From IMG/VR virus record IMGVR_UViG_3300042451_000960: a stretch of 64,000 bases of DNA. One strand, 5' to 3'. The notes beneath the pieces are model-generated. The model had not been told where the DNA came from. It worked only from the letters and a program-made list of their open reading frames with translations, and searched no databases. This document shows, one piece after another, positions 51,814 through 56,396 of this stretch; position 1 is the first letter of the stretch, and each line of letters starts with the position of its first letter. Position numbers and translations under genes: made by a program. This stretch comes from a virus (Duplodnaviria; Caudoviricetes).

Positions 51814-51822
51814 AACTTATCC

Positions 51823-51838
51823 CAATATGTCAAAGAAC
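51823..51838 (-). promoter_or_regulatory. boxA-like antitermination element
   Basis: Minus GTTCTTTGACATATTG; compare boxA GCTCTTTAACA. Confidence 0.6.
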
Positions 51839-51846
51839 ATATACTG

Positions 51847-51918
51847 CGCTCCCTCTTGGATTCGAACCAAGGACCAACAGATTAACAGTCTGCTGCGCTA
51901 CCGCTGCGCCAAAGGAGC
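51847..51918 (-). tRNA. tRNA-Asn(GTT)
   Basis: gcaga-ctgttaa-tctgt; G73. Confidence 0.92.
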
Positions 51919-51920
51919 TT

Positions 51921-51962
51921 AAAACGAAAAAACCTCTAACCGATTTGATTCAGTTAGAGGTC
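51921..51962 (-). terminator. Intrinsic terminator (attenuator) upstream of tRNA-Asn
   Basis: gacctctaactg-aatcaaat-cggttagaggtt plus ttttcgtttt. Confidence 0.8.
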
Positions 51963-51989
51963 TTTCTATGTTGTTTTAAGTATAATCTA

Positions 51990-52142
51990 TTACCAACCTG
52001 ATGCTTCCTCTAACTGTGTACAAATATAATCCACCTTGCCTAAGTTTGCCGGATTACTAATCGTACTAAACATACGAATGCCTGCCCACTCATTTCTCAA
52101 TGTAGGTTGCGAACAATTTGTATGTAGTGTTAAAGTTTTCAT
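51990..52142 (-). CDS. 50-aa putative leader peptide carrying an antiterminator
   Basis: MKTLTLHTNCSQPTLRNEWAGIRMFSTISNPANLGKVDYICTQLEEASGW; nt 52007-52016 complementary to terminator 5' arm. Confidence 0.7.
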   Translation of the reverse strand: MKTLTLHTNCSQPTLRNEWAGIRMFSTISNPANLGKVDYICTQLEEASGW

Positions 52143-52209
52143 CACTTTGTTATATTAATAAGTATATATAAATAATTTTTTCCGAATTGTTGTTAGTTTC
52201 ATCAGGCTT

Positions 52210-52237
52210 AAATAGGGGATGCCGAAGCACCCCCATC
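52210..52237 (-). terminator. UUCG-tetraloop hairpin, probable terminator
   Basis: ggggtgc-ttcg-gcatcccc-tattt on minus. Confidence 0.6.
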
Positions 52238-52291
52238 TAAGTTGTAATAAAAATTAAGATATGAAACGAACAACTTTTCAGTTGTTAGTAG

Positions 52292-52361
52292 AGCGGTGAA
52301 AGGAATTGAACCTCTCCTTTTCACTGGAATGTGAAATGTGCTACCGTAACACTTACACCGC
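52292..52361 (-). tRNA. Atypical Gly(TCC)-like tRNA with non-7-nt anticodon loop
   Basis: gcggtg/caccgc+U; tttcac-attcca-gtgaaa; T-loop ttcaatt. Confidence 0.55.
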
Positions 52362-52603
52362 ATAAATGGAAAGTTTTTTTGTAAGGTGGGAACTTTCCGA
52401 GCGCTTGCCTAACCACAGGTATCTATCGTGTCAACCATTTTCGTTTAGCCCTATTTGATAAGGGATTAACAGTCAAACTTACAAAAACCAGCCTATACTG
52501 TCTACATTAGTTTTGTTCTTTTAGGTCTACATAACTCTTTATTCTCAATAGGTGAACATTATGTAAAAGAAAGACCACGATAATTCATCTTACAGGATGA
52601 ATT

Positions 52604-53530
52604 TGCTCTCTCTATTGGAATCGAACCAATATACAACCATTGAGAAAGTAAAAACGTTGAGAATACACGTTGGGATAACTAGCTTTAGAAAGATTATTTT
52701 GATTCCTTTCGTTTCCACACCCTTTTGAGATGTACCAGTCAATGCAGGTTAGTAAAGTATAACCACTCTTAAAGTTGTAACTTACTCTCTTACTACTCCC
52801 CTTATTCAATCCTGCCGAACTGATTCAACCTTGCGGGTCTATAAGCTTTTCGTAAAAATCATAACCACCTTGCGGGCGTTTATGGCTGGGAACAACTCCC
52901 AACTATGTATGCACCTTTCGGTCACAACTGATGGACACTTATGCTTTATGTTTAATTATAGTTTTTCAAACCTAAATTGAAAATATAAAGTTTTGGTTTG
53001 TAGATTGATTCAGGTAGCGGTCCATCACCAGCTCCCCCATCTTTTGAACGAGAGAATACTAAACTACCCAATGCGTTATCTCAACGCCATACTTCAAGTC
53101 ATCTTCATTAATAGGGATTGGTGTCCCACATTAAAGGATAGTAACGCCACCACGCGTACACAGTCTTATCTTACGTCCTTTCGGATAGCTTGATTATCAA
53201 GACCACTTTGGTATTGAATCACGCAATAGTAAAAAGGGATTAGCTTTCTATGTCTTACAATAATTCTATGAGTTATTCTTATTGTTCTTCCGAACTCAAC
53301 CGAAGGTTCTACATACCCCCAGTTACCCAAACTCTTCTGCTACAGTGTTACCCTCACATACAAAGCCCAAGTAATATCTCACTTGCCTACTCAAGCTCAT
53401 AACCCTAAACGGATTACAAACCGCAAATCATTTAACCAAATGATTCACTTTATCCTACTTTCGTAGTTTATTTAATGACCATAGGCGGCCATCGTACACT
53501 ATGTAACACAAGGTTACTATGTGTAGTATC
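52604..53530 (-). ncRNA. Large (~0.9 kb) structured ncRNA, GOLLD-like
   Basis: No credible ORF; many GNRA hairpins; within tRNA array; follows promoter and boxA; 3' end is a T-arm/acceptor minihelix. Family identity from recalled resemblance only. Confidence 0.6.
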
Positions 53531-53532
53531 TT

Positions 53533-53548
53533 CAATATGTTAAAGAAC
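53533..53548 (-). promoter_or_regulatory. boxA-like antitermination element
   Basis: Minus GTTCTTTAACATATTG. Confidence 0.65.
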
Positions 53549-53566
53549 TTTTGTTTTAAGAACAGA

Positions 53567-54000
53567 GTAAAGATACGAAATCTTTTTCAATTTTCCAAAA
53601 CTTTTTTTAAAGATTCTCAATTTTGTTTTCTGGCGAACCAATCAACTACTTTATTTTTGAATCTTAGTAAAGATACGATAATTTTTTCAAACTACCAAAT
53701 CTTTTTTTAATTAGTTAGTTAAAGTATCCGGCTTTGTAGTTTCTTTTCACTCTAACGAAACTAATGTTTAACGAGTCACTCAATCGGTTTTATTAGTTGA
53801 TGGCTTCAACCTTAACTTTGTAAAGATACGATAATTTTTTCAAACTACCAAATCTTTTTTGTTGCGGGGGAAGGATTCGAACCAACGGCCTCAAGGTTAT
53901 GAGCCTTGCGAGCTACCTCTGCTCTACCCCACAATATTATATTATTTAAAAGAACTTTGTAAAGATACAAATAATTTTTCAAACTACCAAATCTTTTTTT
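53567..54000 (-). repeat. Four tandem ~41-bp repeats, each a Bacteroidota promoter
   Basis: gtaaagatacgataattttttcaaactaccaaatctttttt-like units at 53567, 53667, 53820, 53959. Confidence 0.75.
53862..53933 (-). tRNA. tRNA-Met(CAT), initiator-like
   Basis: tgtggggtagagcag...caagg-ctcataa-ccttg. Confidence 0.85.
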
Positions 54001-54103
54001 CTAAATGTGGATAACTTTCATAAATGCCTCAGAATCAATGAGTTATACACATAGAATTAATAAGTATATACAAATATACTAAAAAGATACGAATCCGCCA
54101 AAT

Positions 54104-54790
54104 TTATTTTTTAGATTGTGCAACAAATGTTTGAGCTGCCTTAAATACAGGGTGTTTCTCATCGTATGCTAAAGCTGATTTAACTTTAATCATATTTCCT
54201 GTTGCTGGATTTTTAATAGTTTTGTCTAAAATATCTTTTGGTAATAAATGCATTAACTTTGTTTCATCATCAGAAACTTTAGGTTCTTCTGGCTTAAATA
54301 CAAAAGTTTTTCCGCCTTTTAGTTTTGAATAAGCTTGTTGTATTTTATCAGGAGAAAACTTACCAATATTTTCTACCTTACCATCTTTGAATATAAGAGT
54401 TGCGTTTCCTTTAGTTTGTTCACCACCAAAGATAACCGCATCCTGTCCGTATTTTTTACCTAAGTTGTGAATATCTTTTGCTGAAATATTTGGAACGAAA
54501 AGTGATTCTTCGATAGCATCTTTTAGTAAGTTCTTCGGACAATCTTCGTATGATAGGTTACCATCCTGGCACTCAACCCAATGACCTTCTACTTTAAAGA
54601 ATCCATGCCCCATCTGCCTTAATTCAGCTTCTAATTCTTTATTAAGTTTTTTATTTTGGTTTGGAGTATTAGAATATCTATATGCGGTAAGCATACCCCA
54701 ATTTTTCACACTCTTTTTGCCCTGAATGTGTTGGAGAACTCTACCTAAAGAAGCTTCATCCAAACGTACTACTTTACATCCTTTTTCCAT
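54104..54790 (-). CDS. Hypothetical protein, DUF3293-like
   Basis: WG.LTAYR...N..L...L...G.W.E...EES.FV...YGQDA. Confidence 0.5.
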   Translation of the reverse strand: MEKGCKVVRLDEASLGRVLQHIQGKKSVKNWGMLTAYRYSNTPNQNKKLNKELEAELRQMGHGFFKVEGHWVECQDGNLSYEDCPKNLLKDAIEESLFVPNISAKDIHNLGKKYGQDAVIFGGEQTKGNATLIFKDGKVENIGKFSPDKIQQAYSKLKGGKTFVFKPEEPKVSDDETKLMHLLPKDILDKTIKNPATGNMIKVKSALAYDEKHPVFKAAQTFVAQSKK

Positions 54791-55309: not shown

Positions 55310-55957
55310 TTATTTTATTAATTTATTCTTAACTAACTGCTTAAATAAATATTCAGATACTTTTCTATCAGATGGATAATGTAATCCACTCAATTCTCTT
55401 ACTCTTTTTATTTGATGATAAAAGTCATCTACTTCATCCGCAATTTCCGGCTTCATTTTTCCAAAATGATATAATATTACTAAAAAATCTAAAGTATGAC
55501 CAGATGGATATGCTGCTGAATTTGCATCAGATGCGGTTATTGGATAAAGTGGTAAGTTTAGTTCCTTTGCCAATTGATATGGCCTTGGTCTATTGAACTT
55601 ATCTTTAAGGTAAAATAGAATCGGGTCCACATCACCAACCCATTTTAGTATTTCTTCCTTGCTAACATCTAATCCCAGCTTTTTTCCAACTATAACAAAG
55701 AAATCATAGTGATTGGTTTCTATTAACTTACAAAATTTTAAATCTTCTTCGGATGCTTCTTTTGTAATTCTTAACAAATAATCTAACTCGTTTTTAGTTT
55801 CTTCGGATGAATTTTTGGGAAATGGATGATTTTCTAATACATCTTTGATGATACCAGTTTCTTCGCAGTCTTTGATGATACCGGAACGGTCTTCTCTTAC
55901 CTTCTGCTCCTGTTCTTTAGTTGTATTACCATATTTAATATCATCCAAGTTCATCAA
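55310..55957 (-). CDS. PAP2-family phosphatase/haloperoxidase
   Basis: K..FNRPRP, AYPSGH, R..SGLHYPSD. Confidence 0.85.
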   Translation of the reverse strand: MMNLDDIKYGNTTKEQEQKVREDRSGIIKDCEETGIIKDVLENHPFPKNSSEETKNELDYLLRITKEASEEDLKFCKLIETNHYDFFVIVGKKLGLDVSKEEILKWVGDVDPILFYLKDKFNRPRPYQLAKELNLPLYPITASDANSAAYPSGHTLDFLVILYHFGKMKPEIADEVDDFYHQIKRVRELSGLHYPSDRKVSEYLFKQLVKNKLIK

Positions 55958-56396
55958 CTACTTTTTTCGTTTTAAATACATCGGTAATTTTTCTTACAAC
56001 ACTCTTTTTAAAATGACCCGAATCAATCACTTTAAAATCTTTACCGTTTCTATCTATAAACTGCCAATGTGCTTCAGTTAATCCAAACCAATCATCTATA
56101 TGGTTTAGTACATCTTTTGGTTTAAAATCCGAACAACTATAAATATCAAATTGAAACATAGCCGGATTTTCGTTATCCCAAACGTGAATAGATGCATGCG
56201 ATGTTGCTAATGTTACCGTTCCCGTTATCCCTTCGTTGCCCGGTTCATTAACATAAACCGATGTAGGACCTGCAACAACTTTCATTCCTACGTTGTCAAC
56301 CAATTGTGTAAACCATATGTTTAACACTTTTTCTGTTTGTGGTGGGGATTTTAAGTATCCCTTTACCAATAGATGCAAATGATTTGGTACGAACAT
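55941..56396 (-). CDS. S-adenosylmethionine decarboxylase proenzyme-like
   Basis: GITG.V.LATSHASIHVW...FDIYSC. Confidence 0.75.
   Translation of the reverse strand: MFVPNHLHLLVKGYLKSPPQTEKVLNIWFTQLVDNVGMKVVAGPTSVYVNEPGNEGITGTVTLATSHASIHVWDNENPAMFQFDIYSCSDFKPKDVLNHIDDWFGLTEAHWQFIDRNGKDFKVIDSGHFKKSVVRKITDVFKTKKVVDELG

Follow-up and report, generated by a model that had tools for sequence, protein, structure and literature searches.

Features of the locus

The window analysed here, a stretch of 64,000 nucleotides, belongs to a 160,007-bp IMG/VR virus record that is 79% complete by estimate and carries genes for a family-B DNA polymerase, a ribonucleotide reductase, a DnaB-type helicase and a tail fibre protein. 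The features of the GOLLD locus and its surroundings are, from upstream to downstream:

53959-53991, minus strand: promoter module P1 (TTTG 53991-53988, 20-nt spacer, TATCTTTAC 53967-53959), preceding tRNA-Met
53861-53933, minus strand: tRNA-Met (CAT), from ARAGORN; Rfam tRNA 59.9 bits
53820-53852, minus strand: promoter module P2, a repeat copy from the genome motif scan
53667-53699, minus strand: promoter module P3, a repeat copy from the genome motif scan
53567-53599, minus strand: promoter module P4, nearest to GOLLD (TTTG 53599-53596, TATCTTTAC 53575-53567)
53530-53548, minus strand: boxA-like leader element GTTCTTTAACATATTGAAG, from alignment and comparison with rrn leaders
53548-53539, minus strand: boxA core GTTCTTTAAC, the boxA of the first-pass annotation
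53496-53524, minus strand: leader hairpin ACACATAGTAAC-CTTGT-GTTACATAGTGT between boxA and core, read from the sequence
53072-53492, minus strand: GOLLD 5' domain (env-38 type), from env-38 homology, BLAST and RNAalifold
53463-53458, minus strand: GAAA tetraloop (CGAAAG) in the 5' domain
53184-53177 and 52921-52914, minus strand: CCGAAAGG loops
52654-53071, minus strand: GOLLD 3' domain (RF02032), cmscan 295.9 bits
53048-53041, minus strand: UCAAAAG loop in the 3' domain
about 52995-52950, minus strand: variable A/U-rich linker in the 3' domain
52875-52868 and 52836-52829, minus strand: two CCGCAAGG loops in the 3' domain
52605-52648, minus strand: tRNA-like minihelix, RNAfold -10.9 kcal/mol
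51821-51838, minus strand: second boxA-like element GTTCTTTGACATATTGGG between tRNA-Asn and tRNA-Val, from the genome-wide motif scan

ARAGORN found 27 tRNA genes, all on the GOLLD strand, with one tRNA-Met upstream of GOLLD and the others downstream; GOLLD heads the tRNA array of the phage, and its place in a phage genome beside tRNA genes is that of the family. The nearest upstream tRNA is a tRNA-Met in 24 of the 75 related GOLLD loci considered below, and the structurally characterized GOLLD env-38 has also been described downstream of a Met-tRNA (PMC12286853). Further upstream of the RNA block, 54104-54790 and 55941-56396 (minus strand) encode, respectively, an S-adenosylmethionine lyase family protein (PF23780, E 2e-11) and an S-adenosylmethionine decarboxylase (PF02675, E 4e-14). 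Fourteen runs from lake-water metagenomes contained 61-87% of the sampled words of the stretch, and in a megablast against cultured phages, 24 kb of the window matched tRNA genes only.

Assignment to the GOLLD family

In a comparison of the whole window with Rfam 15 (cmscan), positions 53071 to 52654 of the minus strand matched the GOLLD model RF02032 with 295.9 bits (E 1.3e-83; gathering score 150 bits) over model positions 1-416 of 416, i.e., without truncation, and GOLLD was the sole match other than tRNAs. A permissive Rfam scan of 51900-54100 returned no other large-RNA family, ROOL (RF03087) included. The first-pass annotation had proposed GOLLD from resemblance and had suggested a covariance-model search as the check; the search confirmed the proposal, with nearly twice the gathering score over the full model, and the lack of such a hit, which the annotation had listed as an argument against itself, is contradicted by an E value of 1e-83. 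RF02032 models the conserved 3' domain only, and the 420 nt upstream of the match are homologous to the 5' domain of env-38; the structural core therefore extends from 53492 to 52654 (minus strand, ~839 nt), displaying the variable 5' domain with its own conserved structure and the total length of ~800 nt that characterize the family.

A 30-nt pattern taken from the 5' domain was found in at least 119 IMG/VR loci, 75 of which, unique and full-length, were used as relatives. Across the 76 aligned sequences conservation was high from 53494 to 52655 and fell on either side, save at the boxA island discussed below. For the leader and 5' domain of 51 non-redundant sequences RNAalifold predicted 110 pairs, 84 of them with compensatory double changes, at odds with the absence of covariation that had been named as a second ground for rejecting the assignment. 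The closest GOLLD (L108), carried by a complete 274-kb record, is 83% identical to that of the window. Distant BLAST matches extended over both domains, from ~53499 to 52714, in the huge uncultured phages LR756502 (642 kb) and LR745206 (635 kb), and were located in the 3' domain in the Acinetobacter phage vB_AciJM_313; the GOLLDs of all three exceed the RF02032 cut-off.

The GOLLD env-38, derived from a marine metagenome, has been resolved by cryo-EM as a 14-subunit cage (PDB 9MEE, 833 nt; Kretsch et al., 2025, PMC12286853), and its construct begins with ATGGCCGC.TATGGTC..AAATAAA.TACGAAAGTAGGATAAAGTG and ends with ..GTGTATTCT.. (PMC12286853, supplement). Compared by eye with the env-38 sequence as printed in the supplement, the window mirrors both the start (ATGGCCGC..CGAAAGTAGGATAAAGTG) at 53492 and the end (..GTGTATTCT..) at about 52654, reading ATGGCCGCCTATGGTCATTAAATAAACTACGAAAGTAGGATAAAGTG from 53492 and GTGTATTCTCAACGT at 52668-52654. 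The two RNAs have in common the two-domain layout, the type of 5' domain, long internal stretches that are identical or nearly so, a similar length (833 vs. ~839 nt) and a tRNA-Met upstream. They differ in provenance (marine sample vs. freshwater phage), in the linker and in several hairpin tips, and the solved construct excludes the boxA leader and the 3' minihelix seen in the window. The GOLLDs of Streptococcus agalactiae (12-mer, PDB 9L0R), Lactobacillus brevis and Mycobacterium share the conserved 3' domain with the window copy and, like it, are borne by phages or prophages and adjoin tRNA genes; their 5' domain, however, is reduced or different and without P21b, whereas the window copy is of the full env-38 type. 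Some GOLLDs of that group also harbor a tRNA within the linker, while an internal tRNA occurs neither in the window copy nor in any of the 75 relatives. ROOL RNA (RF03087) resembles GOLLD in being large, phage-associated, close to tRNA genes and able to form RNA-only cages (PMC12286853), yet the two are unrelated in sequence and fold.

ORFs of 43-66 aa occur on both strands and might be taken to mean that the region codes for small proteins instead of, or besides, an RNA. None of this set is conserved, however, substitutions in 51 relatives follow the paired helices and not codons, and an RNA whose structure has been solved can be aligned with the region base for base, all of which leaves a coding function with a next to negligible probability. 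Between 52590 and 53710 no ORF on either strand exceeds 66 aa, in agreement with the earlier description of the region as devoid of long ORFs. That the GOLLD copy is decayed, or a passenger no longer functional in this phage, also appears very improbable: just four non-canonical pairs were flagged in the full-length RF02032 alignment, the conserved loops are all intact, the differences from the 83% identical GOLLD of the complete 274-kb phage keep pairing, and the sequence is present in RNA libraries. Both readings are set aside, given that the model match is intact, that pairs covary and that RNA-library contigs exist, and the same three observations render superfluous the fallback of the first-pass annotation, a new large ncRNA. 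The best explanation overall, and in our judgment a very probable one, is that 53492-52654 (minus strand) is the env-38-type GOLLD RNA gene of a large lake-water phage with a probable Bacteroidota host. Nothing speaks against GOLLD membership, and the RNA is a fresh member of an already known family, ordinary as a kind. The hairpin loops named in the first-pass annotation were all found on the minus strand. Its limits, 52604-53530, enclose the full core (53492-52654) along with the leader hairpin and the minihelix; one limit coincides with the end of the 3' tRNA-like minihelix and the other with that of the extended boxA.

Presence in lake RNA libraries

Six metatranscriptome runs contained 39-48% of the words of the stretch. 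In the four runs examined, contigs identical to the window (zero differences) covered 52671-52788, 53004-53146 and 53155-53300 in X15, 52853-52933 and 53375-53461 in X16, and 52774-52872 in X18, with depths of hundreds to thousands in runs belonging to separate studies; over 52416-52635, window-identical contigs were found at low depth only. The first-pass annotation had made its case depend on a discrete transcript, and on this point the contigs give a partial answer: they establish the presence of core sequence in RNA libraries, whereas strand, ends and continuity as a single transcript cannot be read from assembled contigs. The leader and promoter (53527-53613) and most of the tRNA array were devoid of contigs, which is not taken as evidence.

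Promoter modules and probable host

The modules P4 to P1 are four copies of a direct repeat of 45-61 nt, spaced by 100, 153 and 139 nt and all contained in 450 nt, and each consists of TTTG, a 20-nt spacer and TATCTTTAC, with the overall form TTTG-N20-TAnnTTTA; the 160-kb genome has 12 occurrences of the module on its minus strand, ahead of genes. The promoter previously assigned to position 53567 corresponds to P4, as 53567 is the final base of its -7 box TATCTTTAC, and comparison with the 75 relatives bears out its dedication to GOLLD. Most related loci have a perfect TTTG-N19-21-TAnnTTTG at the matching site, and in most of the loci with a match to TTTG-N17-23-TAnnTTT[GAC] this ends 21-28 nt before boxA. 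A consensus sigma-70 scan was uninformative (11 sites vs. 7.8 expected), and a terminator scan found none. Transcription from P2 and P3 would traverse the stretches 53819-53706 (110 nt) and 53666-53610 (60 nt), and one RNA-library contig in X18 joins 53831 to 53684, a strain variant with one promoter module fewer.

The arrangement of TTTG and TAnnTTTG is the -33/-7 promoter form of Bacteroidota. The -7 box of the window ends in A, where the Bacteroidota consensus has G, and because of this departure the promoter could need a phage factor. Shine-Dalgarno-like motifs preceded 4% of 140 ORF starts, vs. 8% in controls, and A was enriched at -13 to -11 and at -3, again the pattern known from Bacteroidota, in which starts are poor in Shine-Dalgarno sequences and rich in A at these positions. 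The promoter form, the A-rich starts without Shine-Dalgarno sequences and the rRNA-type boxA described below together suggest that the host is probably a member of the Bacteroidota. Against this counts Microcystis phage Mel-JY01, which comes closest among cultured phages in its DNA polymerase (52% identity) and was reported on a cyanobacterium; no GOLLD was found in that phage. The 5'-domain motif was absent from 185,579 representative bacterial genomes, and prophages therefore provide no host link for env-38-type GOLLDs.

A boxA-like element in the leader

The leader of the window copy contains, 19 nt after the -7 box (usually 21-28 nt in the relatives), an element already labeled boxA in the first-pass annotation, a label upheld by both the 75 relatives and the rRNA leaders of Bacteroidota. 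It forms a conserved island at 53548-53538, GTTCTTTRAA, whose first seven bases occur in 74 (G), 73 (T), 76 (T), 69 (C), 74 (T), 76 (T) and 73 (T) of the 76 aligned sequences, and the complete pattern is matched by 67 of the 75 related leaders. The element precedes the core by 20-100 nt, is not part of the env-38 construct and was left unpaired by RNAalifold apart from three invariant, non-covarying pairs. Its position is thus promoter-proximal, in a predicted single-stranded segment, upstream of the 839 nt of GOLLD and of the tRNA array. Between boxA and the core, the inner stem of the leader hairpin changes on both sides among relatives, from GTAAC/GTTAC to GTAGA/TCTAC and GTAGG/CCTAC.

Bacteroidota 16S loci were fetched with a phylum-specific 16S pattern, and the 450 nt before each 16S gene were scanned (n = 88 leaders). 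The core motif was present in 27 of the 88, and the extended form GTTC[AT]TT[GA]A..[AT]TTG. in 36, always 80-178 nt before the 16S gene and against an expectation of 0.02 per leader; the window's GTTCTTTAACATATTGAAG agrees with the sequence found in these rrn leaders, GTTC[AT]TTGAAAATATTGAA. The same extended form was found in 18 of the 75 GOLLD leaders (0.002 expected), and several GOLLD leaders (L109, L107 and L071) match the commonest rrn-leader form, GTTC[T/A]TTGAAAATATTGAAA (20 nt), at 20 of 20 positions. The Polaribacter loci L135, L136 and L172 have an A form of the rrn-leader element, GTTCATTGAAAATATTGAAA. Among Bacteroidota rrn leaders without the T form the k-mer AGTTCATTGACAGCG recurs, and many rrn leaders of the phylum have a TATATTTGCACCCGC -7 box.

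The boxA of E. coli reads GCUCUUUAACAA, and rRNA operons carry one copy of boxA in the leader and another in the spacer. The core of the GOLLD element agrees with the bacterial boxA consensus, as known from E. coli and from the NusB-NusE-boxA structures (PMC3177189). The GOLLD element resembles the boxA of rRNA leaders and of lambda nut sites in its GYUCUUUAA-type core, in its location in a 5' leader shortly after the promoter and ahead of a long untranslated RNA, and in having a second copy further in. It differs in preceding a phage non-coding RNA, unlike the boxA of rRNA operons or of lambda nut mRNAs, and neither a boxC nor a leader-trailer helix was identified. LR745206 likewise has one boxA ahead of a tRNA and another ahead of GOLLD, while no boxA was found near the GOLLDs of LR756502 and of the Acinetobacter phage. 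The second copy in the window, located inside the tRNA array, recalls the spacer boxA of rRNA operons. Judged by its sequence, the leader element is of the general bacterial boxA type, in a position like that in rRNA operons. None of the papers in the literature searched, a set that leaves out the original GOLLD description, mentioned GOLLD and boxA together, and searches for the boxA sequence returned PCR primers only.

In a true GOLLD, GTTCTTTRAA could nonetheless serve as a processing site (for RNase E/G or RNase III, for example), a promoter-proximal initial-transcribed element or the binding site of a phage protein, and the resemblance to rRNA leaders would then come from processing common to both and not from the loading of Nus factors. 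Such a role would suit a leader that is possibly absent from the mature RNA, as well as those relatives (L003) in which the element follows a tRNA by 30 nt and does not follow a promoter. It fits less well with a core that conforms to the bacterial boxA consensus, with the same position as boxA in Bacteroidota rRNA operons, with a predicted single-stranded state and with two copies in a non-coding unit, as in rRNA operons, and we regard a role other than antitermination as possible, if rather doubtful. As an antitermination element, the GOLLD boxA would be expected to bind NusB-NusE.

The tRNA-like 3' end

The minihelix at 52605-52648 comprises a 7-bp acceptor stem (CUUUCUC/GAGAGAG), a T arm (AUUGG-UUCGAUU-CCAAU) and the discriminator C, with the linker AAUGGUU following CUUUCUC (AAUGGUUGUAU in the full read-out), and it is without D arm and anticodon arm. 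At 52605-52648 no Rfam tRNA match was obtained, even at E<=1, and ARAGORN reported none; the element is tRNA-like and not a tRNA. Among the relatives, minihelices with different yet complementary acceptor stems were read by hand and from single-sequence folds in L011, L019, L036 and L039 (UAUCAU-type), L007 and L044 (CGCAA/UUGCG) and L048, whereas RNAalifold on ten minihelix sequences recovered the T stem alone, the acceptor stems being out of register in the alignment.

Three classes of sequence follow helix P27 in the relatives: a full tRNA 8-20 nt further on (19/75; mostly tRNA-Met), an intrinsic terminator, or a minihelix (about 12 loci). The last of these includes the window, whose minihelix sits where 19 of the 75 relatives have a full tRNA, and GOLLD 3' ends occur among relatives in three interchangeable forms. 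The classic minimal substrate of RNase P is a T arm with an acceptor stem stacked on it; the window element has the same acceptor and T arm, and its cleavage is a prediction. The relatives that end in an intrinsic terminator differ in this respect from the class with a tRNA-like element for 3'-end processing. Together with the boxA leader, the tRNA-like minihelix appears to be a previously unreported feature of GOLLD.

Downstream of the minihelix, 52301-52605 (minus strand) amounts to ~305 bases more than in L108, between the minihelix and TACTAACAACTG, and this insert ends with an odd tRNA. The tRNA-like gene at 52291-52362 (minus strand) has glycine-type features and an aberrant anticodon arm, with a 6-nt loop AUUCCA or an 8-nt loop CAUUCCAG; ARAGORN assigned it no anticodon and the Rfam tRNA score is just 34 bits. 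The odd anticodon loop recurs in the tRNA directly after the GOLLD of the relative L104.

Proposed cage assembly and mechanism

GOLLD ranks among the largest non-coding RNAs of bacteria and phages, its RNA-only cage exceeds the ribosome in size and, to our knowledge, its function has been open since 2009. In env-38 the GAAA tetraloop forms bridge B1, the last two A's of the UCAAAAG loop form B6, and the GC dinucleotides of the CGCAAG loops L21a and L21b form B8 and B9 (PMC12286853; PMC12990946). All of these loops, the two CGCAAG kissing loops included, were found in the window, and cage assembly of the window RNA may be extrapolated from its homologue, with the qualification that stoichiometry varies within the family, 10-, 12- and 14-mers having been described (PMC12990946). 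Published ideas on the cage include encapsulation of tRNAs or ribosomes (PMC12286853) and storage of embedded tRNAs (PMC12990946). Because GOLLD is constantly linked to phage tRNA arrays, the most likely role of the cage is to serve the translation of the phage late in infection.

Transcription would start from P4, the nearest of four tandem host-type promoters (-33 TTTG, -7 TATCTTTAC), and the rRNA-type boxA in the nascent leader would recruit host NusB/NusE, rendering RNA polymerase Rho-resistant over the long untranslated RNA. The leader would then be removed, and the 3' end would come to lie at helix P27 or immediately downstream, through a cut by RNase P at the tRNA-like minihelix, which would leave the GOLLD 3' end at about 52649, or alternatively through the U-run after P27. 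Once freed, the RNA would self-assemble like env-38 into a closed RNA-only cage of ~14 subunits.

The boxA complex has been proposed to guide the co-transcriptional folding of rRNA. Tentatively, and with somewhat less than even confidence, we extend the proposed sequence of events to the GOLLDs of Bacteroidota phages in general, which would be miniature rRNA-type operons: boxA would load the host Nus complex and so shield the GOLLD-tRNA unit from Rho, and may also guide co-transcriptional folding, while the flanking tRNAs or tRNA-like elements would release the RNA for the cage.

The window copy offers a clearly delimited case: a GOLLD of the full env-38 type, present in lake RNA libraries and carried by a jumbo-phage record that is nearly complete and has a complete relative of 274 kb. 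The probable host phylum has genetic tools (Flavobacterium, Bacteroides). Through the boxA leader and the tRNA-like 3' element, both expression and maturation of GOLLD become accessible to tests at the bench. If the boxA reading is true, phages borrow the host rRNA transcription machinery to make GOLLD, and this would give an indication of when, and in what amount, the RNA is made.
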